In this document: positions 2,680 to 18,335 of the stretch, piece after piece
Layout: each line of letters opens with the position of its first letter
How positions within the stretch are numbered: the stretch's first letter is position 1
IMG/VR virus record: IMGVR_UViG_2778261666_000010
Origin: a virus
Lineage: Duplodnaviria; Heunggongvirae; Uroviricota; Caudoviricetes
Length of the DNA stretch: 24,201 bases
Strand: one strand, 5' to 3'
The notes under the pieces: model-generated
What the model was told of the DNA's origin: nothing
Database searches by the model: none
What the model saw: only the letters and a program-made list of their open reading frames with translations
Position numbers and translations under genes: made by a program

Positions 2680-2682
2680 GAT

Positions 2683-3611: not shown

Positions 3612-4252
3612 CGTACAGCCTCCGCAATCCGGCCCAGCACCGTGTTATAAATCAGGCGCTCATCTGCCTGGCTGATACCCAGCAGCTCACGTACCGGGTA
3701 ATCGGTGAAAATGCCCGGCGCAACCTGATCGCGCTCACCGAACTGATGAACGCGGGCAATACGTGCGGCCACGCCGCTGTAACCCACCGTCACACCGGAA
3801 GCATCTGCACGGGCTTTCAGGTAGCGGGCGGTGCGCAGTTTTACGAACATGGGGACGCGCTTTGTGCTGTCCTGGTTGATGCGCCGGGTGCGTATTTCCA
3901 GAAAACGGTCGATATCATCCCGGTAAAACGTGCGGATATTATTTTTATCCTCATCCCACCCGGTAATGGTTCGCCCGTATTTCCCCGTGTCGTGATGCCA
4001 GTTTTTCAGCGTGCGTGCTTCGTTATTCCAGATAAAGCGAATGCGTTCCTGTATCCGGGTTACGCGGCGTCTGCGTGGTGTCCACGCGGTCCCGTCCGGC
4101 GCTTTCTGTGACCGGATACGCGCCTGCTGGGCGCGGCGTAAATCCTGTGCCAGCTTTCTGGCGATGTTATTAATGGCCTGCTGATTCAGGCTGTCGCGGA
4201 TGGCCTCAAAGGTTTCATCCACGCGGGTGAATGCCTTATCCATCGCTTTCAC
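3608..4252 (-). CDS. S: Tail completion / virion morphogenesis protein (P2 gpS position)
   Basis: 214-aa ORF between R and V in P2 order. Start is ambiguous: GTG 4252 or ATG 4243. Longer than the ~150 aa I recall for P2 S. Confidence 0.65.
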   Translation of the reverse strand: MKAMDKAFTRVDETFEAIRDSLNQQAINNIARKLAQDLRRAQQARIRSQKAPDGTAWTPRRRRVTRIQERIRFIWNNEARTLKNWHHDTGKYGRTITGWDEDKNNIRTFYRDDIDRFLEIRTRRINQDSTKRVPMFVKLRTARYLKARADASGVTVGYSGVAARIARVHQFGERDQVAPGIFTDYPVRELLGISQADERLIYNTVLGRIAEAVR

Positions 4253-4703
4253 CCCACGTCACATCCTGGAATACATGCGACCAGTCGCCTTCGGAAGATG
4301 GCAGGCGGGGTTTTGGCTCCGGCAGGTGTTCTGCCTGCGGCGTGCCCTGACTGCTGCGCGTGATGCGAACGCGTTCCCGCAGAGGGAGCGTAAACAGGAG
4401 ATCGGCGCTGTCATCGTCATTGATAACGGCGGAGAATTTGATGTCCTGATTACGCTCCGGATTGAGCAACAACTGTGGCTGATTTTCTGATAACCACGCC
4501 AGTAGCGGCAGCGTGAGGTCGTCCAGCTCCCCGGCGTAATCCATGACAAACATCACCATCTGATAGCGGTAAACAAACGAGGGCGTTTCTCCGGTCGTTT
4601 CAATGTTGCCGCTCTCCACGAAAATGGTGAATTTTTCCGGGTTGGCCTGACACCATCGGCATGAACGGGTCATGGCTTCACGCAGGGAATCAGTTTTCAG
4701 CAT
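4236..4703 (-). CDS. R: Tail completion protein (P2 gpR-like)
   Basis: 155 aa, the length I recall for P2 R; ATG at 4703; directly downstream of the lysis genes. Confidence 0.75.
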   Translation of the reverse strand: MLKTDSLREAMTRSCRWCQANPEKFTIFVESGNIETTGETPSFVYRYQMVMFVMDYAGELDDLTLPLLAWLSENQPQLLLNPERNQDIKFSAVINDDDSADLLFTLPLRERVRITRSSQGTPQAEHLPEPKPRLPSSEGDWSHVFQDVTWGESDG

Positions 4704-5010
4704 GGTTGTTGTCCTCGTTGTTCAGTCGTTGCAGCTTGCGCTGTTCCAGTAATTCAATGGCCCGTTTATCCGCGTTACAGGTTTCCAGTGCATCCAGAAG
4801 GCGGTCGCCCCATATACCGAGATTTCCCCATGTGGGAGTATCAGGGAAGGGGGGAGGCATTACCGGTATGGTCAGCGTCTGCGGTATAAGCCGGACTGAC
4901 GGCGCTGGCCGTGGCGCGTTCTGCGTGCCTGCGCAACCTGTCAGTAAAACGAGCGTCAGGCAAAGCGTGGGCGCATTCATCTTTTGCAATATCGTTGCGT
5001 AGCTGTTCAC
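4690..5010 (-). CDS. Outer-membrane spanin (o-spanin, Rz1/LysC-like lipoprotein), overlapping the i-spanin in another frame
   Basis: Signal peptide with lipobox LLTGC followed by a proline-rich region. GTG start at 5010 has GGAGAGG upstream; an ATG at 4980 is an alternative. Overlaps the i-spanin 3' end by ~170 nt. Confidence 0.7.
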   Translation of the reverse strand: MNSYATILQKMNAPTLCLTLVLLTGCAGTQNAPRPAPSVRLIPQTLTIPVMPPPFPDTPTWGNLGIWGDRLLDALETCNADKRAIELLEQRKLQRLNNEDNNHAEN

Positions 5011-5248
5011 GTCTGGCCTCTCCGTCCTGATTGCGTTGCTGATTTTCCGCGCGGAGTTGTGCCAGCACCTGCTGCATATCCTGTACCCCGGCGCTGATGA
5101 TATTCAGGGTGTCGACGGTACTTTTCAGGGTGCTGGCCTGCGCTTCGTTTCTGGCGTTCTCCCGGCCCAGTGACCACGACAGACGCATGGATGCTCCCCA
5201 GGCGGCAATCAGAAGAAAAGCGACGCCCAGCGTGGGCCAGAGCTTCAT
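4841..5248 (-). CDS. Inner-membrane spanin (i-spanin, Rz/LysB-like)
   Basis: Start moved to ATG 5248 (MKLWPTLGVAFLLIAAWGA...), which overlaps the endolysin stop (ATGA). N-terminal transmembrane helix then a charged coiled-coil region. The track's extra 48 N-terminal residues overlap the endolysin. Confidence 0.7.
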   Translation of the reverse strand: MKLWPTLGVAFLLIAAWGASMRLSWSLGRENARNEAQASTLKSTVDTLNIISAGVQDMQQVLAQLRAENQQRNQDGEARREQLRNDIAKDECAHALPDARFTDRLRRHAERATASAVSPAYTADADHTGNASPLP

Positions 5249-5637
5249 GCCGGATAAACACCGTGCGGTAACTGAAAATGCGGTCCGTCTTTCAGGGTCT
5301 TCCAGTCGCCGCCCCATTCCACCGGAATATTCAGTTCCCGGCTGGCCTGTCTGAATGCTGCTGCGATTTTTTCGTACAGCGGCCATTCCCATGACACCTG
5401 GCTGCCGATATAAGCCACAACATCCACGGCATGTCCCGTAAGGTGGCGGCTGTTCATGGTCTGGCTCTTACCTGTGGCCACAAGTTGCTTCTGGCGGTAA
5501 CGGCTGCGCAATCCTTCGGTGATACCAAAATCCACTTCCGAGATTTCCAGTGCCCGTCGGGTCACTTTCACCAGATCAGGATTTACGCCCTGCAAATTCT
5601 TTTCGCTCCGGCTGCTGAATTTAAATGTGTTGCTCAT
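5245..5637 (-). CDS. Endolysin, peptidase M15 family (L-alanyl-D-glutamate peptidase type)
   Basis: 130 aa with a zinc-peptidase signature (SRHLTGHAVDV ... DGPHFQL) resembling T5-type M15 endolysins. ATG 5637 overlaps the holin stop. Not a P2 K-type lysozyme. Confidence 0.75.
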   Translation of the reverse strand: MSNTFKFSSRSEKNLQGVNPDLVKVTRRALEISEVDFGITEGLRSRYRQKQLVATGKSQTMNSRHLTGHAVDVVAYIGSQVSWEWPLYEKIAAAFRQASRELNIPVEWGGDWKTLKDGPHFQLPHGVYPA

Positions 5638-5957
5638 TCGTCCTTCTCCTTCACCCTGCGATTAAAGGCCGCAATAACCTTGTCGCGTGCTTTCTCTGCC
5701 CCCATAAAACCGATTGATGCGCCGATAAACGTCACGGCATCTTCAGGAAAACCGAAGAAGCGCAACGACCCGGCCACGGCCATGGCAAGAACGCCGCACG
5801 CCAGCGATCCCGTTACGGTCTGAACCAGTGTTCGTCCGTCATAAAGACTCATCAGCGCGGAAATGCTGACCGCCGCGCCTACTGCATACACCGTTGGCAG
5901 GTGGTCAAAGAGCCACGCAATAACCTGCTCTGTGATCCCTGTTTGAATGGTGCTCAC
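5634..5957 (-). CDS. Putative holin
   Basis: About 107 aa with three hydrophobic segments and a charged C-terminus, located between X and the endolysin like P2 Y. The track ORF has no internal ATG; I call a GTG at 5957 with a GGGGGAG motif 5 nt upstream, just after the gpX stop. Confidence 0.6.
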   Translation of the reverse strand: MSTIQTGITEQVIAWLFDHLPTVYAVGAAVSISALMSLYDGRTLVQTVTGSLACGVLAMAVAGSLRFFGFPEDAVTFIGASIGFMGAEKARDKVIAAFNRRVKEKDE

Positions 5958-5959
5958 TG

Positions 5960-6160
5960 CTACTCCCCCCACAACTGAATCATTTCTCGTTTCTTCTTCT
6001 CCGGCTCCGGCATCTCCACTTCCTGCCCGGCGTCCAGAAATACCTGCTGACAGAGTCCGGGGTTGGCATCCAGCACCTTTTCGGTGACGCCCTGCGTCGT
6101 GCCGTAGTACCGGAAACAGAGCGAATCCACGGTGTCGCCTTCCAGTGCCTTCACTTTCAT
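5960..6160 (-). CDS. X: Tail protein X (P2 gpX-like, LysM-like)
   Basis: Start moved to ATG 6160 (MKVKALEGDTVDSLCFRYYG...), giving 66 aa, close to P2 X. Overlaps the gpL stop (ATGA). Confidence 0.7.
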   Translation of the reverse strand: MKVKALEGDTVDSLCFRYYGTTQGVTEKVLDANPGLCQQVFLDAGQEVEMPEPEKKKREMIQLWGE

Positions 6161-6654
6161 CAGCACAACTCCGCAAAGATTCGCGGGCGGCACAGAATGT
6201 CAGAGATGGCCCAGCTCACATCGCGCCACAAATCCGATGTCTGTATATCCAGTGCGTCCGCCCGGCGGTCGCCCTTGTCCGTTGTGTCCGCATCGCGGTA
6301 ACGCTCCAGAATCAGGGCGCGTGTGGCGGTATAAACAGCATTGCGCCAGTGCCAGAGATTGACGCTTTCTCCGTTAATTACGGGTGCCGGAACATCGGCC
6401 AGCGTCTGATGGCCAGCCGCCTGCTGTTCCTGCTGCCATGCTTCCAGCTCGCGGGTAACGTGTGCCACGGCCCCGGTGGCGGTATGCAGCAGGCGGGAGG
6501 TGGTCACACGGCCCGGCAGTCGTACCGCCAGACGCAGCTCGCGCAGCACAATATCCGGCCAGAATGCACCTGCTGAAATGCGAGTGTCGCCATCATCGGT
6601 ATCGGTGATGTCGTCCTCTGCGGGTCTTGGTTCAGTTCTGGCAACCATACTCAT
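6160..6654 (-). CDS. L: Head completion/stabilisation protein (P2 gpL-like)
   Basis: Position after M as in P2. Track start 6663 is GTG only 1 nt from the SD; ATG 6654 has AGGAG at good spacing. C-terminal ...WRDVSWA... resembles P2 L. Confidence 0.8.
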   Translation of the reverse strand: MSMVARTEPRPAEDDITDTDDGDTRISAGAFWPDIVLRELRLAVRLPGRVTTSRLLHTATGAVAHVTRELEAWQQEQQAAGHQTLADVPAPVINGESVNLWHWRNAVYTATRALILERYRDADTTDKGDRRADALDIQTSDLWRDVSWAISDILCRPRIFAELC

Positions 6655-6756
6655 GGGGTTCACTCCTGAAAAAAATCGGGCGGTGGGTGCGCGGTGTAAA
6701 CGGTCACGGAGTCAAACCGGAACACCGCGCACGCCGCCCGCTGACGGGGTCAGTCG

Positions 6757-7557
6757 TTAACCGCGCTTCGCCTTCTGCGTCGCGGTGGTTTTTCGTGTTG
6801 CAGGCTTCCGCGTTGTCTTTTTACTTTTGCTGCTTTCGTCCTGCGCCTGCTGTGCGCTGGCGTCTTCTGGTGCGGCTGCGGAATCGGCTTTTTTCAGGGC
6901 GCGGGAAAGGGTTGCAATCTCGCGTTTCACACCTGCGTTCGGGTTCAGGTGCATCGCTTCGCGCAGCAGCTTCAGTGATGAGGCCATGCTGTCCGCATCG
7001 CTCAGGCCACGGCGGGCAAAGGCGCACGCCTTGCATAATTTGGCGCGCACTTCGTCCGGCATATCCTGGTTGGCGACAATTTCCCAAAGTGTGTCCAGTG
7101 GTTCGATAAAGGCGGACAAATCCGCGTCGGCATCCGTCCCGGCCTGCGTCAGTACCGGGTTGCAGATTTCTTCGGTCAGTACCGTGACAGCAGTACGGCC
7201 AAAGTTATCCGGCATGATGAGGTTGTGACGGACCACATACGCACCAATACGCAATGCCAGCGGAAGATCGCCGCAGTCAATCGCCCACACCATCAGCGTG
7301 GCAATCACTTCATCCTGCTGCCCGCCGTCAGCCTCCAGCGTTCCTTCAATCCAGCCGGAAAAGTCCGGCAACAACTCTTTTTTGATGGCGGCTTTCGCGC
7401 TTCTGGCCTGTACGCCCTTAAGCCGGGCCTGTGCCAGACGCAGACGATACAGCACCTCTTCATGCGCGGTACGCGCGGCGTGGTCCACGCCTTCATTCGC
7501 CCGGCCTGCGCGCTGTGCCATCACGTTCTGCCAGTGTTGCTGTGCAGGAGTAATCAT
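6757..7557 (-). CDS. M: Terminase small (endonuclease) subunit (P2 gpM-like)
   Basis: 266 aa with ...MPDEVRAKL... and a basic K/R-rich C-terminal tail as in P2 M; ATG 7557 with GGAGAG upstream. Confidence 0.8.
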   Translation of the reverse strand: MITPAQQHWQNVMAQRAGRANEGVDHAARTAHEEVLYRLRLAQARLKGVQARSAKAAIKKELLPDFSGWIEGTLEADGGQQDEVIATLMVWAIDCGDLPLALRIGAYVVRHNLIMPDNFGRTAVTVLTEEICNPVLTQAGTDADADLSAFIEPLDTLWEIVANQDMPDEVRAKLCKACAFARRGLSDADSMASSLKLLREAMHLNPNAGVKREIATLSRALKKADSAAAPEDASAQQAQDESSKSKKTTRKPATRKTTATQKAKRG

Positions 7558-7574
7558 TTGTTCTCTCCGTTACA

Positions 7575-7593
7575 GGCGGGCATGATGCCCGCC
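7575..7593 (-). other. Perfect 19-nt palindromic hairpin between capsid gene N and terminase gene M
   Basis: GGCGGGCATGATGCCCGCC, just after the N stop (7603-7605). No U-tract follows on the minus strand, so it looks like a stability/attenuation element, not a strong terminator. Confidence 0.4.
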
Positions 7594-7602
7594 GTGAGTT
7601 GA

Positions 7603-8655
7603 TTAGCTGTCGGCGAACTTCAGGCCAGTGACCATCGCGCACTTGCCATAGTCTTCAACGACATAAGCGTCATTGATGGACTGGTAGGTGGCGATGCGGT
7701 TGTATTCCGGCTCGTCTTTCATCAGGCGACGCATTGTTCCTTTCTGCCAGTAAATTGACAGGTTGTTGAACGAGGTGATAAGCATCGTTGAATCCGGGAA
7801 GAACGGCGCAAGGAATACATCCAGCCCGCCAATGGCGCGCGATGACAGGATGAGCTGTCCGGCAAGTAATTCCGCATTGGGATTCTGGCCGCTGATGCTG
7901 TTCAGCACGGGCAGACGCAGCGAGTTAAACAGGTTGCGCCCCATAATCACCACGAGGTCGTCAGCTTCCTTGTGCCATTCATCCAGCAGGGATGAGCGCG
8001 CGTCCTGTACCAGAGCATCAGCGTTCGCATACTTACCCGCGTGCGCCACGGTGTTGTCCATGTTGCGGGAGGTCAGCGTCACGTCATTCATTACGCGCTC
8101 GCTGGCGTCGGTTCTGATGTGCTCCAGCCATCCCACGTTAACGTCCTGAAGCAGCTTGTTAGTGCTGAAGTTGGACTCATCTGCGTGAGACGTGCCGTTG
8201 AAACCGATCATGATGCGGTCAAGCGCCACCTGCCGGGCAATCTGTGTGCTGACGCGGGACTGAAAATCAGGGTGTGCCGCCCAGGCATCAAGCTGCGGAT
8301 ACGAAATAAACGTGTCGTAGTTCACCTGTTCGCACTGATATTTGCGGTTTTTCAGATCAACCACGTTATTCGGGTTACGGCGTTTTGTGCCGTCATAACT
8401 GGTATTCGTGCGCGCAATCGGCCCGGTGGTGTCCAGGAGGATTTTTTCGCCTTTCTGGTCGGTCACACCGAACACGTTAATTTTTTTTGTAAATTCGGTG
8501 CTTTCCTTTACTGCGTTTTCAAAACGCTGCTGCACCGAGGGTTCCACGGTAAATCGCGATACCAGTGCAGATACCGGGATGTTGTTAAGCGACGCCTGCT
8601 GCGCCATATAGCAACCCAGCTTGTTGCGGGTAATATCTGACATCACCAGATTCAT
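7603..8655 (-). CDS. N: Major capsid protein (P2 gpN-like)
   Basis: 350 aa; shares ...FTVEPSV... and the overall pattern of P2 N from memory; ATG 8655 with AAGGAG upstream. Confidence 0.9.
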   Translation of the reverse strand: MNLVMSDITRNKLGCYMAQQASLNNIPVSALVSRFTVEPSVQQRFENAVKESTEFTKKINVFGVTDQKGEKILLDTTGPIARTNTSYDGTKRRNPNNVVDLKNRKYQCEQVNYDTFISYPQLDAWAAHPDFQSRVSTQIARQVALDRIMIGFNGTSHADESNFSTNKLLQDVNVGWLEHIRTDASERVMNDVTLTSRNMDNTVAHAGKYANADALVQDARSSLLDEWHKEADDLVVIMGRNLFNSLRLPVLNSISGQNPNAELLAGQLILSSRAIGGLDVFLAPFFPDSTMLITSFNNLSIYWQKGTMRRLMKDEPEYNRIATYQSINDAYVVEDYGKCAMVTGLKFADS

Positions 8656-8678
8656 AAAAAATTTGCTCCTTTGTCTTA

Positions 8679-9515
8679 TCAGAAGTCAGCCAGTTGATCG
8701 GAGGCTGCGCCCGTTGCGGTGAACCGGTTCTGCGGATCGCCGTCCTGCGTGCGCAGTTTTTCCTTCAGTGCTGTCAGCTCTGTGGTCAGTGAAGTGATTT
8801 TCTGGCTGTCCTGCTGATGGCGGGTTTCCAGCGCATTAAAACGGTCGATAATGTCGGCCTGTGACGTTGCGACGCCTTCCACCGCTTCCTGAATGCGGGA
8901 AAAACTGGCGTCATCCGCTTTGCGGCCACGGCCAATAATCCCCATTACGCGGTTAAACCACTGGGTGCCTTCTTCCTGGCGTTGTTCTGCCATTTCGATG
9001 ATTTCAGACTCGATGGCTTCGGAGATAAGCGGTGCTTCACCCTGGACACTGTTGAACGTCATCACCGCCTGACGTTGCTGTGCCGTGAATTTCAGGCGCT
9101 CAGTGCCCAGACTTGCCGGGGTGTCGGTCATCGCCAGCCCGACCAGATAGGCGCGCCCGTTAACGGAGAACTGCGGGTGCAGTTCGATACTGGAATAGAT
9201 TTTCTTGCCGTCAGCGACAAGCTGCTTCATGCGCTCGGTCGGTTCGATTTCTGCATACAGCGCAGTACGTCCGGCCAGCGGACCTTCCGTAATGTCTTCC
9301 GTACTCAGTGCGGTGACATCGCCCATTGCGGAAAATTCGCTTGACGGGCATGGCGAGAGATAGTGCTCAACGTTCACGCGGGCAGCGTAAACATCCGGGT
9401 CGAAGTTCTCAGCAGCTTCACGCAGATGCACCGGACTGATTTCGCGGCCATCAACAGTTGATCCGGAGACAGCCACGCGAAACTTTTTGCGTGATGTCTT
9501 TTTTTCATTAGCCAT
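8679..9515 (-). CDS. O: Capsid scaffolding protein (P2 gpO-like)
   Basis: Start moved to ATG 9515 (MANEKKTSRKKFRVAVSGSTVDGR...), which has an SD; track start 9548 has none. Matches P2 O pattern (...YLVGLAMTDTPASLGTE...). Confidence 0.85.
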   Translation of the reverse strand: MANEKKTSRKKFRVAVSGSTVDGREISPVHLREAAENFDPDVYAARVNVEHYLSPCPSSEFSAMGDVTALSTEDITEGPLAGRTALYAEIEPTERMKQLVADGKKIYSSIELHPQFSVNGRAYLVGLAMTDTPASLGTERLKFTAQQRQAVMTFNSVQGEAPLISEAIESEIIEMAEQRQEEGTQWFNRVMGIIGRGRKADDASFSRIQEAVEGVATSQADIIDRFNALETRHQQDSQKITSLTTELTALKEKLRTQDGDPQNRFTATGAASDQLADF

Positions 9516-9548
9516 AGTTTTTGCCCCTCTGACTGGTTCTTCAGTCAT

Positions 9549-9669
9549 GATGGCAAAGCGTAACAGGCTGATACAAAGGGCTTTTGTTGTAAGAAAATGG
9601 CCAGAACAGGGGGTTAAGGAGAACGGTTTCGCGCGCGGGTAATCTTCCTGTAATTACTCAGGGGGAGCA
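9549..9669. promoter_or_regulatory. Divergent late-promoter region between O (minus) and P (plus)
   Basis: 120-bp intergenic gap between divergently transcribed late operons, where P2 has its Ogr-activated promoters. It contains TGT/ACA half-sites (e.g. ACAAAGGGCTTTTGT at 9573-9587), but I could not match the P2 consensus spacing exactly. Confidence 0.35.
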
Positions 9670-11421
9670 ATGATTCAGGACGCTTTTGTGCGCCAGCGTG
9701 CGCGACAACTTTACTGGCAGGGTTATCCGCCCGCTGAAATATCACGTCTGATGGGAATAAACCCGAACACGATTTATGCGTGGAAAAAACGCGACCAGTG
9801 GGATGAAACGCCACCCGTGCAGCGTGTCACGCAGTCCATCGATGCGCGCCTCATCCAGCTTACTGAAAAACAGAATAAAACAGGCGGTGACTTTAAGGAA
9901 ATAGACCTGCTGACCCGGCAGCTTAAAAAACTGCATGATGGCCAGCCGGATGCGACGGCCACAGGAAAGAAAGGCCGGGCGAAAAAACTCAAAAATCATT
10001 TCACGCCGGAACAGATTGCCGCACTGCGGGAAAAAATCATCAGCAGGCTGGAGTGGCATCAGCGGGGCTGGTTTGACTCCCTGACCCTTTGCAGGGAAGC
10101 CGGGATACGTAACAGGATGATCCTGAAATCCCGACAGATTGGGGCGACCTGGTATTTTGCACAGGAAGCACTGCTGATGGCGCTGCGTGACGATGTGGCG
10201 CAACCTTACCAGCGTAACCAGATTTTTTTGTCTGCGTCGCGTCGTCAGGCGTTCCAGTTTAAAAGCATTATTCAGAAGGCCGCGGCTGAAGTTGATGTGG
10301 AGCTGAAAGGGGGCGATAAAATCATCCTCTCCAACGGCGCAGAGCTGCATTTTCTCGGCACTTCTGCTGCGTCGGCACAGTCCTATACGGGCAATTTTTA
10401 TTTTGATGAATTTTTCTGGGTCAGTCGCTTTGCTGAACTGCGCAAGGTGGCTGGCGCTATGGCAACCCTCAGCGGACTGCGGCGCACCTACTTCTCCACG
10501 CCATCCACCGAAACGCACGAGGCATACGCCTACTGGAACGGCGACCGCTGGAATGAGAAAAAGGCCTCGCATAAACGCCAGCGTTTTTCTGTGGACTGGA
10601 AAACGCTGCATAACGGGCTTATCTGCCCTGACCGGACGTGGCGGCAAATTGTCACGCTGGAAGATGTGGTTAATCACGGCTGGAAACACACTGATATCGA
10701 CGAAATTCGTGATGAAAACACCGAAGACGAGTTCCTCAATCTCTATATGTGTGAGTTTGTCCGCGAAGGGGAATCGGCATTTAACCTGAATATCCTGATT
10801 GGCTGCGGTGTTGACGGATACGACGACTGGAAAGACTGGAAACCTTTTGCTCCCCGCCCGATGGGGAATCGTCCGGTATGGATTGGGTATGACGCAAACG
10901 GCAGTAGTGGCAACGGCGACAGCGGCGCTGTGTCCGTGGTGGTTCCTCCGGCTGTTCCTGGTGGCCGTTTTCGAACGGTGGAGACGCGACGCGTTCAGGG
11001 GCTGGAGTTTGAAGAACAGGCCAGAGTCATTGAAGAGTTCACGTATCGCTACAACGTGGAACACATCGGCATTGATGTGACGGGCGGGAACGGGGAGGCT
11101 GTTTATCAGATAGTGAAACGGTTTTTCCCTGCTGCTATTCCGTACACCTTCACGCTGTCATCAAAACGGTCGCTGGTACTGAAAATGCTGCAAATAATGC
11201 GTGCCGGGCGGTGGGAATACGATCGCGCCGAACGCGAGCTGGTCGCGGCCTTTAACGCCGTGCGTAAGGTGAAAACACCGGGCGGCTTTATCACTTACGA
11301 AACGGACCGCGCGAGGGGGATCAGCCACGGCGACCTTGCGTGGGCAACCATGCTTGCTGTCATTAACGAACCGATTGGCGGCGAAGGAGAAAACGAGCGT
11401 TTCACGGTTATGGAGTTCTGA
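9670..11421 (+). CDS. P: Terminase large (ATPase) subunit (P2 gpP-like)
   Basis: 583 aa; ATG 9670 preceded by GGGGGAG; N-terminal HTH-like segment (YWQGYPPAEISRLMGINPNTIYAWKKRDQWDE); stop overlaps the portal start. Confidence 0.9.
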   Translation: MIQDAFVRQRARQLYWQGYPPAEISRLMGINPNTIYAWKKRDQWDETPPVQRVTQSIDARLIQLTEKQNKTGGDFKEIDLLTRQLKKLHDGQPDATATGKKGRAKKLKNHFTPEQIAALREKIISRLEWHQRGWFDSLTLCREAGIRNRMILKSRQIGATWYFAQEALLMALRDDVAQPYQRNQIFLSASRRQAFQFKSIIQKAAAEVDVELKGGDKIILSNGAELHFLGTSAASAQSYTGNFYFDEFFWVSRFAELRKVAGAMATLSGLRRTYFSTPSTETHEAYAYWNGDRWNEKKASHKRQRFSVDWKTLHNGLICPDRTWRQIVTLEDVVNHGWKHTDIDEIRDENTEDEFLNLYMCEFVREGESAFNLNILIGCGVDGYDDWKDWKPFAPRPMGNRPVWIGYDANGSSGNGDSGAVSVVVPPAVPGGRFRTVETRRVQGLEFEEQARVIEEFTYRYNVEHIGIDVTGGNGEAVYQIVKRFFPAAIPYTFTLSSKRSLVLKMLQIMRAGRWEYDRAERELVAAFNAVRKVKTPGGFITYETDRARGISHGDLAWATMLAVINEPIGGEGENERFTVMEF

Positions 11422-12467
11422 TGAGCAGAAAAAACAAAAAAGTGCGCATGAGTTCACGCATTGATCTCGCTGATGCGCTCAGGAAAGAATCATCGCTCAG
11501 TGCATTCACATTTGATGGTCCTTATCGCCTGACCGGGCATGACCTGCTGGACAATATGTACTGTGCTGATAACGGGCGGTGGTATGAAACCCCGGTGGAC
11601 TGGTACGGTCTGGCAAGAGCAGCCCGGCAAACGTCCTGGCATCAGTCTGCGCTTTACTTTAAGCGTAATGTATTGCTCGGTTGCTATATTCCGCACCCGC
11701 TGCTTTCCCGGCAGGATTTCTCGGCGCTGGCGCTGGACTGGTTTGTGTTCGGTAACGCATTCCTTGAGCTTCGAAGCAATATGCTCGGCGAACCACTTAA
11801 ATTACGGCACACCCTGGCGAAATACATGCGACGCGGAAGCGATCTTGAATCATGGTGGTATGTGCAGGATGGCAAGGACGCGTTTCAGTTTCGCCCTGGC
11901 AAAGTGTGCCACCTGATGAATCCTGACATTAACCAGGAAATCTACGGCATGCCGGAATATCTCGGCGCATTACTCTCGGCCAGCCTGTCTCATTCGGCGG
12001 ACATGTTCAGAAAACTGTATTACGACAACGGCTCCCACGCCGGGTGCATCATCTACATCGGTGCAGCGCAGGTAAACCGCGAAAGCATGGACTCCCTGAA
12101 GGAAACGCTACAGGGTGCGCGTGGTGGTGGTGCATTTAAAAACGTGCTCATTCATGCGCCCAACGGGGGCAAAGAGGGGGTGCAAATTTTGCCGTTCCAG
12201 CAGATCACCGCAAAGGATGAGTTCATGAATGTTAAGGCGGCATCCCGTGATGATGTGCTGGCTGCGCACCGCGTTCCGCCGCAACTGATGGGGGCGATGC
12301 CGGGCGAAAAAAGTGCGTTTGGCGATGTGGAGAAGGCAGCGCGGGTTTACGCAATTAACGAGCTGATGCCCGTCATGGAGGCTATGAAGCACATCAATGA
12401 CTGGCTTGGCGAAGAGGTGATCCGTTTTAACTCTTATGCTCTTCTTGATGAAAAAACAGCCCCGTGA
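11421..12467 (+). CDS. Q: Portal protein (P2 gpQ-like)
   Basis: 348 aa, close to the 344 aa I recall for P2 Q; immediately downstream of the terminase, as in P2. Confidence 0.9.
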   Translation: MSRKNKKVRMSSRIDLADALRKESSLSAFTFDGPYRLTGHDLLDNMYCADNGRWYETPVDWYGLARAARQTSWHQSALYFKRNVLLGCYIPHPLLSRQDFSALALDWFVFGNAFLELRSNMLGEPLKLRHTLAKYMRRGSDLESWWYVQDGKDAFQFRPGKVCHLMNPDINQEIYGMPEYLGALLSASLSHSADMFRKLYYDNGSHAGCIIYIGAAQVNRESMDSLKETLQGARGGGAFKNVLIHAPNGGKEGVQILPFQQITAKDEFMNVKAASRDDVLAAHRVPPQLMGAMPGEKSAFGDVEKAARVYAINELMPVMEAMKHINDWLGEEVIRFNSYALLDEKTAP

Positions 12468-12483
12468 TGGGGCTGTCCTTTTT
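12456..12483. terminator. Bidirectional intrinsic terminator shared by convergent portal (plus) and orf174a (minus)
   Basis: 8-bp stem ACAGCCCC/GGGGCTGT (12456-12463 / 12469-12476) with loop GTGAT. Followed by a T-run on the plus strand (CCTTTTTA) and preceded by an A-run, giving a U-tract on the minus strand too. The portal stop lies in the loop; the orf174a stop lies in the T-run. Confidence 0.65.
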
Positions 12484-13006
12484 ACCAGAGTTGAACCATT
12501 TTCTGGGTGCCGTCAGGCTTGAGATTATCAATTTCAGAGAGAACGTAATATTGAATGGCTTCACAAACGGTGGTGTAGGGTGAATTACCTTCTTTAAGTG
12601 GCACGATATTATTATTAACGCGAACCTGTATTTCATCGTTATACATTGCGATCGAAACAGGAGTGTGCACGAACGCGACTTCGCCAGGTGTGTCGTCAAC
12701 CACCGTTTCAATACTAAAAGTCAGTTTTCGCTCATCATTGCTGCCCCGTGCTTTGGGGGTAGCGGCAGGGATCTGGGATAAAGGCATTCTGCGAAATCCT
12801 TCGGCTGCTTCCAGTCCGCATGAAACGTAATGCTGGCGATTACCGTCGCTATCTGTCCAGGTCTGTGATGGCAGCTCCAGCGAGATTTCATAAGCATCAA
12901 CAATGCCCTGGGCAAGGCGTACAAGCGGGGTCAGATCTTCATTGCGGCGAAAGCTCTCCTTTACCTGCTCCCGTTTTTCTCTTAACTGCTTGTAATTAAT
13001 GACCAT
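12482..13006 (-). CDS. Hypothetical protein (174 aa), accessory gene next to the portal
   Basis: Track start 13045 is GTG; ATG 13006 has a perfect GGAGG 7 nt upstream (MVINYKQLREKREQ...). Ends at the shared terminator. No motif I recognise. Visibly more AT-rich than the flanking structural genes. Confidence 0.6.
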   Translation of the reverse strand: MVINYKQLREKREQVKESFRRNEDLTPLVRLAQGIVDAYEISLELPSQTWTDSDGNRQHYVSCGLEAAEGFRRMPLSQIPAATPKARGSNDERKLTFSIETVVDDTPGEVAFVHTPVSIAMYNDEIQVRVNNNIVPLKEGNSPYTTVCEAIQYYVLSEIDNLKPDGTQKMVQLW

Positions 13007-13108
13007 AAAACAGCCTCCATTGATTTCTTTGCTCGTATTTTGCACTTATGAAGTATGGTCGGCAAGGTGCCGTATCGCTGACGCGCTTCGCTTGTCTGCT
13101 GCTTCGCC

Positions 13109-13131
13109 GGGGCATAAAAAATTTATGCCCC
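13109..13131. other. Perfect 10-bp-arm palindrome/hairpin
   Basis: GGGGCATAAA-AAA-TTTATGCCCC, about 100 bp upstream of the orf174a start; no flanking U-tract on either strand. Confidence 0.4.
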
Positions 13132-13505
13132 GACTCTCCAGCTCCTGTATCAATCAGATAATTTCACGACGCCTTCCAGCTTATTGTCATCATCGACGGT
13201 CAGGCTCTTACGCAATCCCGCCGTGCTGACTGCATGTTCTCGTCGCCTCAGTGCGATTTTGACGGCCTTATCAGTCACCCCATCAAATCAAAAGCCCTCA
13301 CGTATTTTTCACGCTCAGCGTGAGAAAGACAGCCATTCTGTTGTGTCGCTGCGACATCGTTCAGGGAATGCTATTTACCCCCTGAAACGCGGGCTGTTCC
13401 CCCGTCACCTGCGCGCAGAAAAAACGCGTTTTTTTGTGCACGCACGGATCCTTGACGGATCCAGCCGCCACGGGGGCCGGAAGGGCAAAAAGTCGTTCAA
13501 AAAAA

Positions 13506-13532
13506 TTGTGCAAATTTGTGCACTATTGTGCA
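13506..13532. repeat. Three TTGTGCA direct repeats at exact 10-bp phasing
   Basis: aTTGTGCAaatTTGTGCActaTTGTGCAgc, copies starting at 13506, 13516 and 13526 in non-coding DNA; helical-phase iterons suggest a protein-binding array. Confidence 0.5.
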
Positions 13533-13572
13533 GCAGGGCGATGCGCGATTATCGCCTTGGTTTGAGAGGAAA

Positions 13573-14097
13573 TCAGGTGTTCTTTTTACCTTCTGTCAGT
13601 GGGCATAACCATCCACTATTTACATCACTTAGCTGATGCGTTCTTTCCTCGTGCTTCTCCTGCCACAATGCTTTTCCGCCAGCCTTTATGATGGCTCTTT
13701 CAACATCCCGCTCGTATCGCAAGGGCTGAAATACGTTATTAATGAAATATTCGCTTATGTCCGGAAGCAATACTGCAAAATTATTGGTTTGTTGCGCCGT
13801 TCGGCTATGCAGCAAAGCGGCATACTTTAATGCGTCCTGTGCTTTCTGGAATTTCAGTGCATGGTCAGTGGCGATTTTTTCCAGTTCAGCGATCCTGTTG
13901 TCTTTGGTTTCCAGCTCTTCCAGCAGCTCGGCGATAATGTCCATTTCCTGATGACGGATTTGACGCTTAAACGCCGCCACTGCTTCGCTACAATCCTGCT
14001 CAGCATTTGGGTTATCCGTGATGGCCTCATACCACGCCAGCGTCGATTGATAGTTTTGTGCTGCCTCACGTAATGCCTGATAGTTGATTTCGCTCAT
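13573..14097 (-). CDS. Hypothetical protein (174 aa), predicted alpha-helical/coiled-coil, downstream of parR
   Basis: ATG 14097 with AAGGAG upstream; a hairpin (14135-14152, CAGGGCGAACTCGCCCTG) separates it from parR; no recognisable motif. Confidence 0.6.
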   Translation of the reverse strand: MSEINYQALREAAQNYQSTLAWYEAITDNPNAEQDCSEAVAAFKRQIRHQEMDIIAELLEELETKDNRIAELEKIATDHALKFQKAQDALKYAALLHSRTAQQTNNFAVLLPDISEYFINNVFQPLRYERDVERAIIKAGGKALWQEKHEERTHQLSDVNSGWLCPLTEGKKNT

Positions 14098-14160
14098 TAT
14101 GTCGTTCTCCTTGTTTATGTTCTGAGGTGGAGAGCAGGGCGAACTCGCCCTGATGTTGTG

Positions 14161-14472
14161 TTATTCAGGAAATAACGCCCTGATATTTCTGGCCATCTGA
14201 CTGGTTATCTGTGCGGTTGGTACTGGCTGTGACTCGGGGCGTTCTGTCCTGGTTTGTGTCACTGATAACGTCTCATCGTCAGCCCATGCAGCCAGTCGGT
14301 AAGCCTCTGCCGGATTCATTTTCAGAAGTGCCAGCCCGGCCAGAAAAGCCACGCGTTGGCCGCTTTTGCGAGCTTCTGGTGTAAGGCTGTCCAGCCAGGC
14401 GCATGCTTCACCTTCGTTCTTGACGGCGGCGGGTTTCAGATAGAAACTTATCCGTCTGGTTGGTGTCGTCAT
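14161..14472 (-). CDS. parR: ParR-like centromere-binding adaptor (partition protein)
   Basis: Start moved to ATG 14472 (MTTPTRRISFYLKPAAVKNEGEACAWLDSLTPEARKSGQRVAFLAGLALLKMNP...), with AAGGAG upstream and overlapping the parM stop. Resembles the N-terminal ribbon-helix-helix region of plasmid R1 ParR (...RTIAFKLNPD...LDSIP...RAALTAGLALY...) from memory. The track's 45-residue N-terminal extension overlaps parM. Confidence 0.65.
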   Translation of the reverse strand: MTTPTRRISFYLKPAAVKNEGEACAWLDSLTPEARKSGQRVAFLAGLALLKMNPAEAYRLAAWADDETLSVTQTRTERPESQPVPTAQITSQMARNIRALFPE

Positions 14473-14476
14473 TGGT

Positions 14477-15436
14477 TTACTCCTTGTCCATTGCGTACAG
14501 CCCATTAACCAGAGCAAACTGTGGCACCCCGTCCGCGATGAAAGTCGCATTAACTCCGCAGGCTTCGCGGATAGCGGGTGCCACAATCTCCGCCCCGCCA
14601 CCGACAACCATCACCCGCCCGTAACCCGAAAAACCCGCCAGCGCGCGGATCACGCGTTGTTTCAGTGTTTCTTCCTTTTCACGAATAACCGCCATCAGGC
14701 TGGCGTAATGCGCGTCATTGTGGATGTGCTGGCGCAGCCAGGCTTCATCATGGCGATGTTCGATAATGGTATTGGCGATGTGGTGACTGGTACGCATACC
14801 GTTAGTGGCCATCACCGACAGTACGGCATCGGCCATCAGGGAAACGCCTACGTGTGGATCGCAAAACACCTGGCTGATACCTGCCAGTTGTCCCTGAACC
14901 TTTGCCACATCCAGCGTGGTTCCGCCCAAATCCACAATCAGCAGGGATTCAAACGGACTCATGTCAGCCAGTGCCTTAAAGCCAGCCGGAATGGATTCAG
15001 GCATAACCCGTACATTACGGATAGTGAATGCCTTACCGTTCTGGTACTCCACCGGGCGCATGACGTTCGCTTTTTTGCGGTTGATGTTGGCCATGTCCGG
15101 CTGTGCGTTTGTGTCGAAATACTCGCTCAGTGGCAGGGTGACAACCACATCCACTTCCTGTGGTGTGATGCCTGATTTGACCAGCGCGTGATGAATGGCA
15201 ATTACATTCACATCGCTGTACTGGTATTGCGTGTCGGTCGTCTGGACAAAGCGATCGCTGACCGGATCAAAACCATAGCGCACGCCATCAAGCATGTAGT
15301 TCGCGGGCTGCATGCCACCGAACGGCGCAGACCATTCCGATTTGAAGCTGTTCGGGCTGATGGCGTTGCGGCGTTCGCCGTTCTCAGTCCATGCCAGCTT
15401 GATGTTGGTGGAGCCGTCGTCGATACAAATTTTCAT
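14477..15436 (-). CDS. parM: ParM/StbA-like actin-type segregation ATPase
   Basis: 319 aa, collinear with plasmid R1 ParM as I recall it (MKICIDDGSTNIKLAW..ISPNSFK..YSDVNV..HHAL..RKKAN..VMPESIPAG..DLGGTTLD..GVSL..GGGAEIV..LVNG), including phosphate-1, phosphate-2 and adenosine motifs of the actin fold. Confidence 0.85.
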   Translation of the reverse strand: MKICIDDGSTNIKLAWTENGERRNAISPNSFKSEWSAPFGGMQPANYMLDGVRYGFDPVSDRFVQTTDTQYQYSDVNVIAIHHALVKSGITPQEVDVVVTLPLSEYFDTNAQPDMANINRKKANVMRPVEYQNGKAFTIRNVRVMPESIPAGFKALADMSPFESLLIVDLGGTTLDVAKVQGQLAGISQVFCDPHVGVSLMADAVLSVMATNGMRTSHHIANTIIEHRHDEAWLRQHIHNDAHYASLMAVIREKEETLKQRVIRALAGFSGYGRVMVVGGGAEIVAPAIREACGVNATFIADGVPQFALVNGLYAMDKE

Positions 15437-15468: not shown

Positions 15469-15580
15469 TTACGGGATTTTTAAATCCCGCTTTTGCCTGT
15501 TTTGTGCGCGCTTCATATTTCGCGGCGCTTTTTTTGCTCATTTACGGGATTTGTGAATCCCGTTTCTGTCTGTTTTTTGT
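15469..15580. repeat. Two ~38-bp direct repeats, each with an internal hairpin and T-rich tail, straddling the gene A stop and the parM upstream region
   Basis: Copy A 15469-15506 (TTACGGGATTTTTAAATCCCGCTTTTGCCTGTTTTGTG) and copy B 15542-15580 (TTACGGGATTTGTGAATCCCGTTTCTGTCTGTTTTTTGT); copy B lies inside the last ~23 codons of gene A. Confidence 0.6.
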
Positions 15581-18335
15581 TCCCACGGGTCAGGCCACCC
15601 CGCAGCAGGTCTGCTTTGCGGTGGGCGCGTTCAGTGGTTTCACTGATTCTCTGTGCGTGCTCTGCGTCACGGATGGCGCGCAGCATGTCAGAAAGCACGG
15701 TAACGGGTGTCTTCATGGTGTTCTGGTCTTGCTGAAGTGTGGATGCCAGGCGTGCGGCGGCTTCGGGGTCTGATGCCCCTAGCTGTTCCAGATAGCTGGC
15801 GACCGGGTTATGGCGGATCTCCGTGCTGCTTACGCCGTGATTACGGCTCAGGCGCTGCCAGAGCTGCGTGATTCGGCTGTCCGGTCGGGTATCTGGTTTG
15901 CGTACAATTTCAAATCCCTGCGGTGCAATGATGCTGCCGTCAACGTACAGACTGCCGCCCCGTAACAGGTGCAGCATCTGTTGTTCACCGATATGCAGGC
16001 CGAGAGATTCGGCAGACTCCCGCCATTCTTTAGCGAGTAACTCGTGGTTATCAGGCAAAGGTCGCGGCTGTTTGCGGCTCTGTGTCCAGTTCTGCATTTC
16101 ATCGCTGCTGTTTTTTGCCTGTTTGTCACGAAGCGAACGCATCAGCGCCCGGCGTTCGTGCCGTTTCAGTGAGCGCATCCATTCATTTACTTCAACGCCG
16201 TCAGGAAGCTGCGGCCACGGTGCTGGCCGTTCTTCCGGCTGTTCTGTTCCGTTGTTGTTCGTTTCCTGTACACGGGGACAGTTATTGCCACGAGTCCAAG
16301 GGGCGGCAGGGCCGCCCTGAAGGTCAAAACCATTTTCGCGGGCGCTGTCTTCCGCTTCCGGTTTACGCCTTACCAGCTTCCAGTTATCCGGGTGCGTGCA
16401 CACGCGGGAAGACTCCCCGATGAGCGGCGACCAGATCCCGTAAATCTGTACACTCTGCTCGCCGTAATCGTTCAGTTCATCTGCGAGGTCGTAGGCGGTG
16501 CGAATCAGGTAGTCTTTACGTGGAACAAGTACGCCGCCCTGTTTTTCAATGTAGGAGGCAAAACACCCGGCATCGGCGGCAGCGAGTACCGCATCCATTG
16601 CGTCATCCTTCAGCCGTTGCGGGCCTTCCGGGTTGCGTGCCATCTGGCTGGCAAGGCGGCGCAGTTCACGCCACACCTGACGGGAGGGGATGCCAAAGAA
16701 CTGGAACTGGCGGACCCGATGAAGGCGCGCCCAGCCGATGGCGCGCTCCACGCTCTCGGCCATTGATTTTCCGGTTTCGTGGTCAACGCGTGGTTTGCCC
16801 GTTTTCGGGTCGATTCCATCCACGGCGCGGCTGTCCAGGTTTTTTCCGATGTAGGTGGCGATGTAGCTGGTTGGCGTGCCTTTGGAGCCGTCGACGTACT
16901 CCACCTTAAAGCGCGGAGTAATATCATTGCCCAGCTCGTGGCGGTCTTCCTGAATGGCAATATCGCGGGTGATGGCCACGATGCTGTCGATTTCTTCTGG
17001 ATGAGCAAAGACCATCATATGCCAGTGCACGGTGCCGTCATGGTGAGGCTCCACCGTGCGGATGCCATACCAGCGCAGGCCGTCGCGGTTCAGTTTCTTG
17101 CGGACCGCCGCAAAAAACGTGTTAACCAGGTAATCGCTGGAGTCGCGCATGGTGGCCCCGTTCCATTTGGGATTCGGATGACCGTTCTCTGTTGTGGCGT
17201 GGTATTTTGACGGGCAGGTGACAGTCAGAAACACCGCTTTGTCGCCACGGGCTTCGGCTAGAAGTTCCAGCCCCTTCATGGTGGCCATCATTTCTGCCTT
17301 ACGGTGAACCGGGTTACTTACTCCCGCGTAATACACTGTCTCAAGATCAATCGTGAAGCCGTCTTCGTTTTCCAGTTCGAAGCTCTTCAGGAAGTCGCGG
17401 GTTTTCTCGCGCTGTGCGCGAAACTCGCTTAACGCGTCCTGGCTCAGATAGGGTGATGTTTTTCTGGAAACCAGACAGGCGGCACGGAGCTGTTCTTCCC
17501 GCCACTCGCAACGTAAAAGCCACAGTTTGTGTTTCCACCATTCCGCACAGGTCAGGCGAAGGATGGCACCCGGCAGCAGCTCCGTATTCAGTGCGTTCTT
17601 CCGGTCTTTGTCCGTTCTCAGTGCTTCGTAATGCGGCGGCATGGTGTGCAGATGTAACGCCATGCGGGCCAGCATCTGATACGCCTTCAGCGCAATTTTC
17701 ATGGTCAGCTCGCCATCGGTCGCGCCAAAGTTATCGCAGAGTGTTTCGAAAGTGCTGCTGAACATCGCCGCCGTCATGGTGGCCAGCGTCTGTATCTGGT
17801 GTTTGTTGAGCTGCGGCAGGTAAAGCAAATCGTCCAGGCGTTCGCGTCCGGCAAGGGAGCAATAACACGGTGTCAGCCAGCGTCCGTCAGTGCGATCCAG
17901 ACGTTCGAATATTTTGCGCAGGGTTCCGCGTGCATAGCGTTCCGCCTGCCAGCTCTTTTTGCCTTTCCGGCGATCGGCTTCCTGTTTTTTGCGCAGGAAG
18001 GAGAGGTGGCGAATAAGCGGATCGCGCAGATAGGACGGCAGCAGGCGGAGCGAGGCCATGGCTTCATCCACCGCGCCGCGTGCCTGTTTTCTGGCGTCTC
18101 CTGTCAGTGTGATGGTTTTGTCCTGTTTTTCCTGTGCGTCCAGGCTTTTATTAATCAGGTTGCCCAGCGGCGTGGCGGAGAACGCCGCATCAGCCATTTC
18201 CTGGCGGCGCTCGTTCTCTGCCCGGTAGGCATCCAGCCAGGAGGAAAGCGCGGATTCAGGAGCGGGGATCCCCGTTCCTTCACGCCCCACTGCGTGGCGC
18301 GGTTGTTGCCAGTCCCTGATGTACTCTGCCGTCAT
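15513..18335 (-). CDS. A: Replication initiation endonuclease (P2 gpA-like, rolling-circle HUH family)
   Basis: 940 aa, ATG 18335; metal-binding motif EPHHDGTVHWHMMVF and downstream tyrosine region (...TSYIATYIGKN...). Longer than the ~761 aa I recall for P2 A. Confidence 0.85.
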   Translation of the reverse strand: MTAEYIRDWQQPRHAVGREGTGIPAPESALSSWLDAYRAENERRQEMADAAFSATPLGNLINKSLDAQEKQDKTITLTGDARKQARGAVDEAMASLRLLPSYLRDPLIRHLSFLRKKQEADRRKGKKSWQAERYARGTLRKIFERLDRTDGRWLTPCYCSLAGRERLDDLLYLPQLNKHQIQTLATMTAAMFSSTFETLCDNFGATDGELTMKIALKAYQMLARMALHLHTMPPHYEALRTDKDRKNALNTELLPGAILRLTCAEWWKHKLWLLRCEWREEQLRAACLVSRKTSPYLSQDALSEFRAQREKTRDFLKSFELENEDGFTIDLETVYYAGVSNPVHRKAEMMATMKGLELLAEARGDKAVFLTVTCPSKYHATTENGHPNPKWNGATMRDSSDYLVNTFFAAVRKKLNRDGLRWYGIRTVEPHHDGTVHWHMMVFAHPEEIDSIVAITRDIAIQEDRHELGNDITPRFKVEYVDGSKGTPTSYIATYIGKNLDSRAVDGIDPKTGKPRVDHETGKSMAESVERAIGWARLHRVRQFQFFGIPSRQVWRELRRLASQMARNPEGPQRLKDDAMDAVLAAADAGCFASYIEKQGGVLVPRKDYLIRTAYDLADELNDYGEQSVQIYGIWSPLIGESSRVCTHPDNWKLVRRKPEAEDSARENGFDLQGGPAAPWTRGNNCPRVQETNNNGTEQPEERPAPWPQLPDGVEVNEWMRSLKRHERRALMRSLRDKQAKNSSDEMQNWTQSRKQPRPLPDNHELLAKEWRESAESLGLHIGEQQMLHLLRGGSLYVDGSIIAPQGFEIVRKPDTRPDSRITQLWQRLSRNHGVSSTEIRHNPVASYLEQLGASDPEAAARLASTLQQDQNTMKTPVTVLSDMLRAIRDAEHAQRISETTERAHRKADLLRGGLTRGNKKQTETGFTNPVNEQKKRREI

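Follow-up and report, generated by a model that had tools for sequence, protein, structure and literature searches.

A probable cos site of the P2 family in a palindrome-rich intergenic region of a P88-like prophage

The cohesive-end packaging site of the P2 family, cos, has been placed between gpA and gpQ, and P4 and P2 have it in common (PMC9122126). The interval between Q and cos is a hotspot for the insertion of accessory genes (PMC5694545), and a 55-bp core of the P2 site goes back to Ziermann & Calendar 1990, as cited in PMC5694545. In the sequence records of P2 and 186, cos lies 187-196 bp past the portal gene. A literature search turned up no study that treats cos in P88-like phages.

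Here we analyse a 24,201-nucleotide stretch of viral DNA (hereafter the window) and, within it, the region 13007-13505, which an earlier note made from the letters of the sequence had described as a palindrome-rich, non-coding stretch and a probable cos or packaging region. Gene order and homology support that proposal, but only for the right-hand part of the region, and the module itself occupies 13373-13532. We put the probability at roughly 85% that 13373-13532 is the cos site and that the remainder consists of a post-portal hairpin segment, a functionless spacer and the leader of an accessory gene, a reading built on sequence comparison.

Gene order and composite structure of the region

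By BLAST, the 24-kb window is a P88-like prophage (Xuanwuvirus, Peduoviridae, P2 family): it falls among P88-like phages and also matches the chromosomes of many E. coli. The ORF map and Pfam matches give a gene order of the P2 type, reversed relative to the P2 map:

6757-7557, minus strand: small terminase M (gpM homologue; Pfam Phage_term_smal, E 6e-36; 37% identity to P2 gpM)
7603-8655, minus strand: capsid N
8679-9548, minus strand: scaffold O
9670-11421, plus strand: large terminase P (gpP homologue; Pfam Terminase_6N, Terminase_6C and Terminase_5; 44% identity to P2 gpP)
11421-12467, plus strand: portal Q (gpQ homologue; Pfam Phage_portal), left landmark of the cos region
12482-13006, minus strand: 174-aa ORF (phrog_5091, function unknown)
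13007-13572: non-coding stretch
13573-14097, minus strand: Ead/Ea22-like gene
14161-14475, minus strand: ParR/StbB
14477-15436, minus strand: ParM/StbA
15513-18335, minus strand: gpA-type replication protein, 940 aa

The region 13007-13505 sits between portal Q and the right-end accessory genes and gpA, the same layout as in P2 and 186, and cognate terminase genes of the gpP and gpM types (by Pfam and the identities listed above) are encoded in the same window. Searching the flanking accessory genes with PADLOC and PHROG returned only phrog_5091 and the Ead/Ea22-like match.

We compared the region with about 190 related copies drawn from IMG/VR, metagenome contigs, one genome per species and phage records. 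By this comparison, 13007-13505 is a composite, made up of an accessory-gene leader, a post-portal segment, a variable spacer and part of the cos module. The pieces to the left of the module are:

12468-13077, minus strand: inserted accessory-gene ('moron') cassette, consisting of the ORF 12482-13006 and its leader 13007-13077
13078-13167, plus strand: nearly invariant post-portal segment, with almost no polymorphism among 107 distinct copies
13108-13132, plus strand: perfect hairpin with 11-bp arms and without a U-tract, at the position of the P2 tQ terminator (P2 annotation)
13168-13372, no strand assigned: variable spacer with many polymorphic sites and without a conserved ORF

The cassette is absent from P88_4B11 and most relatives, in which the portal stop abuts the equivalent of 13078; the TGA at 13079-13081 is a relic of that ancestral stop codon. 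Portal and module are about 1000 nt apart in 21 loci versus 350-450 nt in 135. The leader, which carries a Shine-Dalgarno sequence (GGAGG, 13014-13018), is on this alignment part of the inserted cassette, so that 13007-13077 falls outside the ancestral intergenic region. The post-portal segment is kept even in subtypes in which the following spacer is unrelated, and other subtypes have a different hairpin at the place of 13108-13132. The variable spacer is swapped for unrelated sequence in four loci (L068, L090, L112 and L108), in types B and C and in the satellite-like elements described below.

The region is indeed rich in palindromes. Perfect stem-loops (stem >=6, loop <=6) number 10 matches, representing 5 distinct elements, against a mean of 1.05 (sd 1.28) in 1000 dinucleotide-preserving shuffles, 0 of which reached 10; only 2 of 238 overlapping 499-nt tiles of the window do so, both over the 13007-13505 region. 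Every element that the earlier note had listed is present, displaced by 0-3 nt: the hairpin given there as 13109-13131 with 10-bp arms (13108-13132, 11-bp arms), TCACGCT-C-AGCGTGA at 13309-13323 (~13306-13320), TGTCGC-T-GCGACA at 13344-13356 (~13343-13355), the CTGCGCGCAG palindrome at 13409-13418 (13408-13417), AAAAAACGCGTTTTTT at 13419-13434 with a seventh T at 13435, the tandem repeat ACGGATCC-TTG-ACGGATCC at 13444-13462 (13443-13462) and the GC-rich stretch at 13464-13487. What does not carry over is part of the meaning attached to them. As elements of cos most drop out, one lying at the position of tQ, those at 13309-13323 and 13344-13356 lying in the variable spacer and broken in relatives, and A6CGCGT7 being specific to some subtypes; the T-run and the GTGCA that follows it are the part that is conserved family-wide. 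The terminator-like reading of AAAAAACGCGTTTTTT also failed, in a scan for consensus terminators. Judged by their behaviour among relatives, most palindromes in 13007-13505 are bystanders outside cos proper.

The putative cos module and its relation to defined cos sites

The elements of the module are as follows:

13373-13532, plus strand: putative cos module, 160 bp, running 27 bp past 13505
13391-13409, plus strand: predicted cohesive-end core (cosN), GGGCTGTTCCCCCGTCACC, with 13/19 matches to the P2 cohesive end
13409-13435, plus strand: CTGCGCGCAG palindrome followed by the A6CGCGT7 palindrome, at the position of the P2 hairpin CGCCCGC-TTCA-CGGGGCG beside cos
13434-13441, plus strand: box 0, TTGTGCAC after the T-run, with TTTT..TGCA columns invariant across P2, P4, 186 and all subtypes
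13442-13505, plus strand: spacer of fixed length and variable sequence, holding the ACGGATCC direct repeats (13444-13462), the GC-rich stretch (13464-13487) and an A-tract
13506-13512, 13516-13522 and 13526-13532, plus strand: three TTGTGCA repeats at 10-bp spacing, a candidate terminase-binding array (cosB-like)

The module is common to all P88-like phages, to Novemvirus-type relatives and to satellite-like elements, and its boundaries are homology breakpoints. The satellite-like elements are homologous to the window from ATTTACCCCC (13373) to the end of the third TTGTGCA (13532), phiT5282H, a distant Enterobacter phage, retains just 13388-13532, and with every relative the homology ends directly after the third TTGTGCA. 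Among 107 distinct type-A copies, 13378-13417 is nearly invariant while its flanks vary. Part of the conservation at 13426-13451 and 13503-13523 reflects the search itself, since patterns taken from these positions were used to fetch the loci.

Five loci carry the module in a satellite-like setting (L102, L118, L124, L230 and QAKE01000006.1, the last comprising L211 and L218). Their genes encode an integrase, AlpA, an 897-aa primase, a repressor-like gene and a 470-aa homologue of the P2-family capsid that is only 35-39% identical to N of the window, and no portal, terminase or scaffold homologue was found in these loci. In QAKE01000006.1, the distance between two copies of the module is 12,207 bp, roughly a third of the size of the helper genome, which is the same ratio of element to helper as that of P4 to P2. 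The stretch 13373-13532 is the only DNA that we saw in common between the window and these 12-kb elements. Such sharing fits a packaging signal, by analogy with P4 and P2.

A direct link to defined cos sites was sought by alignment with P2 and 186, the check that the earlier note had proposed, and with P4, the cos junctions of all three having been rebuilt from the ends of their records. A profile of these three sites alone gave no nhmmer match in the window. The same profile matched modules of the Klebsiella 3LV2017 type over their full length (E 2e-9 to 3e-7) and those of the small element and phiT5282H in the correct place (E 0.012 and 0.18). The Klebsiella type in turn, with the 18-mer used for fetching removed, matched the window at 13375-13441 (E 7.8e-8), and a combined profile of P2, P4, 186 and the Klebsiella intermediate matched 13387-13528 (nhmmer, E 4.6e-5), the single significant match in the 24-kb window and colinear over profile positions 6-148. 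From this chain of profiles and its colinearity, the module is therefore a diverged homologue of the P2-family cos region, and in these searches the link from the window to P2, P4 and 186 needs the Klebsiella intermediate.

The architecture common to P2, P4, 186 and the subtypes of the window runs from a GCGCGC flank through a C-rich core, a palindrome, a T-run with RTGCA and a spacer to three RTGCA repeats. The GCGCGC and the T-run are conserved family-wide; the A-run is not. By our own base count, the P2 stretch from GCGCGC to ATGCA is 55 bp, consistent with the 55-bp core as cited, and the P2 counterpart of box 0, TTTTAATGCA, closes it. The corresponding part of the window is ~13385-13441, in which all four elements occur in order, with TGTGCA for ATGCA and 2 extra bp.

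The spacing of the boxes is more constant than the sequence between them. The three TTGTGCA repeats, which lie beyond the end of the region described earlier and are absent from its list of elements, have their counterparts in three ATGCA repeats that P2, P4 and 186 carry at an equal distance. Those three sites align gap-free over 152 bp, though the middle of P2 is unrelated in sequence. Measured start-to-start, the RTGCA of box 0 and that of the first repeat are 72 bp apart in the window (13436 to 13508), as in P2, P4 and 186, and the same value was found in 29 of 31 diverse representatives, the other two having 71 bp. These representatives came from Escherichia, Salmonella, Citrobacter, Kluyvera, Enterobacter and Kosakonia and from six further genera (Klebsiella, Pantoea, Erwinia, Mixta, Izhakiella and Apirhabdus). 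An inverted repeat occurs in the G/C-rich spacer of P4, of 186 and of the Klebsiella type. RNAalifold on 29 representatives, run on both strands, found no shared structure in the spacer, and we dropped the idea of a conserved hairpin or dyad there.

The predicted cut position and alternative readings

The G/C-rich core was sought as the counterpart of the ~19-nt GGCGAGGCGGGGAAAGCAC of the P2 family and the candidate for it is 13391-13409. Its sequence, GGGCTGTTCCCCCGTCACC, shares 13 of 19 positions with P2 GTGCTTTCCCCGCCTCGCC when both are read in one orientation relative to Q, a similarity that alone is not significant and could be chance but that gains support from the position of the core and from its invariance; the alignment to the 19-nt P2 cohesive end runs through the Klebsiella intermediate, and in the profile alignment the core is 16 nt long (13394-13409). 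A strict core pattern, with four near-synonymous positions allowed, matches 183 of the 190 module copies, in many genera, and the other 7 are divergent subtypes, one 1-nt variant of the C-run and phage Chuche. The search does not build in this conservation of the core, as the patterns that fetched the loci lie in other parts of the module.

Two phage records depart from the core in ways of their own. P88_4B11 (NC_049391/LR595891) has a unique deletion of 13389-13393 together with T13398C, and Chuche (PP925824), an environmental isolate, has a unique 7-nt deletion at ~13395-13401; neither record carries prophage flanks, and none of the prophage copies of the same subtype has a multi-nucleotide indel in the core. 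We assume that P88_4B11 was sequenced from virion DNA; the simplest reading of both deletions is assembly error at physical DNA ends. Contig starts fall here as well: in window-equivalent positions, a Kosakonia contig begins at 13393, QAKE01000006.1 at 13394 (behind 9 adapter-like bases) and a food-metagenome contig of high coverage at 13397. Starts within 13369-13417 were counted for three metagenome contigs and two genome-bin contigs, with no contig end near 13488, and scaffold breaks form a further cluster at 13454-13456. Repeat-induced assembly breaks in multi-copy genomes are a plausible source of such ends near the core, and we therefore treat them as weak evidence for virion ends. From the alignment and the deletions, nicks are probably made at 13390-13394 on the top strand and at ~13409/13410 on the bottom strand, with the 5' polarity of the overhang assumed from P2 and 186.

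This likely cut site lies about 75 bases to the left of the place suggested in the earlier note, which had compared the GC-rich stretch 13464-13487 with the P2/186 cohesive-end core. That stretch does not hold as the cohesive-end core: it sits in the spacer of fixed length and variable sequence, and the likely counterpart of the 19-nt ends of P2 and 186 is 13391-13409, or 13394-13409 by the profile alignment. A cos site whose terminase cuts in or beside 13464-13488 would still account for the linear record of P88_4B11, which is opened exactly at 13487|13488 and is the only public linear record cut inside the module, and the plus strand of this G/C-rich stretch does loosely resemble GGCGAGGCGGGGAAAGCAC. 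However, the sequence of the stretch changes from subtype to subtype and is polymorphic inside the family at 13467-13480, the counterparts in P4 and 186 are uncut, their experimentally defined ends lying at the core, and 0 of 64 metagenome contigs end near 13488. The same P88_4B11 record also has the 5-nt deletion in the core, which suggests that its real ends are there and that the record was opened arbitrarily. We consider a cut in the GC-rich stretch unlikely.

Readings other than cos fare worse. The TTGTGCA repeats might be iterons, either of a centromere (parC) for the adjacent ParM/ParR or of an origin, since short direct repeats at 10-bp spacing are typical of both and the ParR/StbB and ParM/StbA genes lie ~0.6 kb to the right. 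Yet the same three-repeat array recurs, equally far from cos, in P2, P4 and 186, whose records have no partition genes in the end regions examined; its neighbours in phiT5282H are a peptidase and an ATPase, and the satellite-like elements carry it with no partition gene among the ORFs searched. What lies to the right of the array changes from relative to relative, and the array itself invariably accompanies the portal side. In type II partition systems parC is normally upstream of parM, whereas the array in the window is downstream of the par operon and beyond another gene. We hold the parC or origin reading to be very improbable and rejected it on the recurrence of the array, in the same geometry, in P2, P4, 186, phiT5282H and the satellite-like elements without partition genes in the regions examined. 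Equally improbable is an ordinary intergenic region in which the palindromes serve only as terminators for the convergent Q and gpA-par operons. The hairpin 13108-13132 at the position of tQ and a weak minus-strand terminator-like site at 13523-13508 speak for it, but a promoter and terminator scan gave no excess over shuffles (4 terminator sites against 2.6) and did not call A6CGCGT7. Nor would terminators explain why the C-rich core is invariant, why the spacing is fixed at 72 bp, why defined cos sites are homologous or why a satellite-like element carries the module; terminator roles for single hairpins can coexist with cos. Finally, a small protein or small RNA might be encoded here, for example by the 42-aa ORF, and NC_049391 and KP063541 do annotate hypothetical proteins of 42-47 aa. 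Against this, about 20% of distinct copies have frameshifts, stops or lost starts, polymorphisms are distributed 19/15/13 by codon position, the segment is swapped for unrelated DNA in sister subtypes, and neither a PHROG search with the 42-aa ORF annotated in some records nor an Rfam scan of 12400-14200 (E<=1, 0 matches) returned a family. Frameshifts or stops break the ORFs of 29-50 aa in ~7-25% of 107 distinct related copies, the share varying with the ORF, and polymorphisms show no excess at third codon positions; two longer ORFs (76 and 150 aa) span the homology breakpoints at 13078 and 13532. We rejected the coding potential of four small ORFs on their broken frames and codon-position polymorphism, in agreement with the earlier observation of no credible ORF in 13007-13505, and regard an encoded small product as extremely unlikely.

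Proposed mechanism and comparison with known systems

Under the cos reading of 13373-13532, the small terminase M is the presumed reader of the signal and the large terminase P the presumed nuclease and ATPase acting on it. By analogy with P2, the gpM homologue would recognise the TTGTGCA boxes, one beside the core and three exactly 72 bp away, and would then place the gpP homologue on the C-rich core (13391/13394-13409). Two staggered nicks made there by the gpP homologue would leave G/C-rich 5' cohesive ends of 16-19 nt, the DNA would be pumped through the gpQ portal and, after injection, the ends would anneal and be ligated, re-forming cos. The exact nick positions, the 5' polarity and the assignment of proteins to boxes are inferred, largely by analogy.

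A broader reading, which we offer tentatively and consider possible rather than probable, is that the packaging signal of the whole P2 family is a ~150-bp 'ruler' rather than the 55-bp core alone, composed of the nicking core, an RTGCA box beside it and three more RTGCA boxes kept exactly 72 bp away by a spacer whose sequence is free. The P88-like form would then be a specificity variant with TGTGCA boxes and an altered, possibly 16-nt overhang, exploited by undescribed 12-kb satellites that bring their own P2-type capsid. On such a ruler, an oligomer of the small terminase might contact both groups of boxes on one face of the DNA.

The module is present in 1140 of 5426 complete E. coli genomes (21%) and, among the matches listed, none has an annotated feature under it. 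A defined cos would enable correct linearisation and annotation of P88-like prophages, would flag two public phage records that are apparently mis-assembled at the core, and would supply a small cassette with which P88-like helpers could package DNA into transducing particles. The constant 72-bp geometry and the sharing with satellite-like elements also provide leads on how P2-type terminases recognise DNA.

Compared with the cos site of lambda (cosQ-cosN-cosB), the module of the window has no sequence relationship and a similar plan, in which a nicking site is accompanied on one side by a small-terminase repeat array at a defined distance. Lambda has 12-nt ends and R-sites with an IHF site and packages from concatemers; P2 is reported to package from monomeric circles. 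The cos sites of 186 and P4 are much closer. Identity outside the boxes is low, and the inverted repeat in their G/C-rich spacer, which sits where the window has its G/C-rich stretch, is not kept family-wide, but the order of the elements is the same and their spacing exactly so. The common cos of P4 and P2 is mirrored by the 12-kb element that carries the module of the window.

P2 itself offers the fullest comparison. Over 19 positions the core of the window shows 6 differences from that of P2, or by the profile alignment is 3 nt shorter; the boxes of the window read TGTGCA rather than ATGCA, the palindrome beside the core is A6CGCGT7 instead of a G/C hairpin, and the spacers are unrelated in sequence. 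Direct similarity is too weak for nhmmer to detect without the intermediate, and the ends in the window are predicted from homology. Nevertheless, both sites lie beside portal Q in the same orientation, both have a GCGCGC-flanked C-rich core, a palindrome and a T-run with an RTGCA box, followed 72 bp further by three RTGCA repeats, and both are accompanied by homologous terminase subunits (44% and 37% identity). The cos module is an expected feature of a P2-family prophage, diverged in sequence.

Between the portal gene and cos

Three features lie at the end of the portal gene Q and beyond it:

12456-12476, a new terminator-like hairpin
12468-13077, an accessory-gene cassette encoding a 174-aa protein (phrog_5091), inserted between the portal gene and a conserved post-portal hairpin
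13078-13167, a nearly invariant 90-nt segment (107 distinct copies) following the ancestral portal stop codon

The cassette is found in 21 of the roughly 157 related loci with a portal match, and its position between Q and cos is a known insertion hotspot (PMC5694545). Pfam and PADLOC searches with the 174-aa protein returned no match. The 90-nt segment, which contains a perfect hairpin with 11-bp arms and no U-tract, is retained even in subtypes in which the next 200 nt are unrelated. The hairpin sits at the position of tQ, the P2 terminator after Q.

Partition and replication genes

Beyond cos, two features lie on the minus strand:

14161-15436, minus strand, an actin-type partition pair in this P2-like prophage, ParM/StbA and ParR/StbB
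15513-18335, minus strand, a gpA-type replication protein of 940 aa

ParM/StbA (319 aa) matches Pfam StbA_N and ParM_N, and ParR/StbB (104 aa) matches Plasmid_stab_B. Despite the presence of this pair in the prophage, 1,623 of 1,624 E. coli matches are chromosomal, a combination that invites one to ask whether there is a plasmid-like phase or whether the pair does something else. The Pfam GPA domain of the replication protein spans residues 179-503 only, leaving long N- and C-terminal extensions outside it.

Other carriers of the cos module

The cos module is also carried by a family of integrative elements of about 12 kb: L124 (positions 1-11289), L102, L118, L230, and L211 with L218, which together represent QAKE01000006.1. 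These elements have genes for an integrase, AlpA and an 897-aa primase (phrog_1139), together with a repressor-like gene. They also encode a capsid homologue of the P2 family, 470 aa long and only 35-39% identical to the phage capsid protein N; no portal, terminase or scaffold homologues were found in the family. The unit length in QAKE01000006.1 is 12,207 bp, about one-third of the helper genome. The elements look like satellites with a capsid gene of their own, and we found no published description of the family.

Some copies of the module are in assemblies that bear the labels Vagococcus, Bacillota MAG and Planococcaceae MAG (L206, L211/L218 and L234). Because these copies are near-identical to enterobacterial ones, contamination or mis-binning is likely. 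Three independent sequences (L050, L094 and L234) all break at the second copy of ACGGATCC, a short direct repeat in the variable spacer (window-equivalent 13454-13456). Assembly failure at the repeat could account for this, as could a scaffold gap.

The predicted cos core and its spacing

Two phage records depart from the otherwise invariant cos core, each in a unique way: NC_049391 (phage P88_4B11, positions ~78-100) has a 5-nt deletion and one substitution, and PP925824 (phage Chuche, ~19650) a 7-nt deletion. The deletions are probably assembly errors at physical DNA ends, and both public records may need correction.

The RTGCA box beside the core lies exactly 72 bp from the first of three RTGCA repeats, which lie outside the 55-bp P2 core (window 13436-13508). 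This spacing is kept in 29 of 31 diverse relatives and in P2, P4 and 186 (cos junctions L003/L004, L126/L127 and L128/L129), with unrelated sequence in between.
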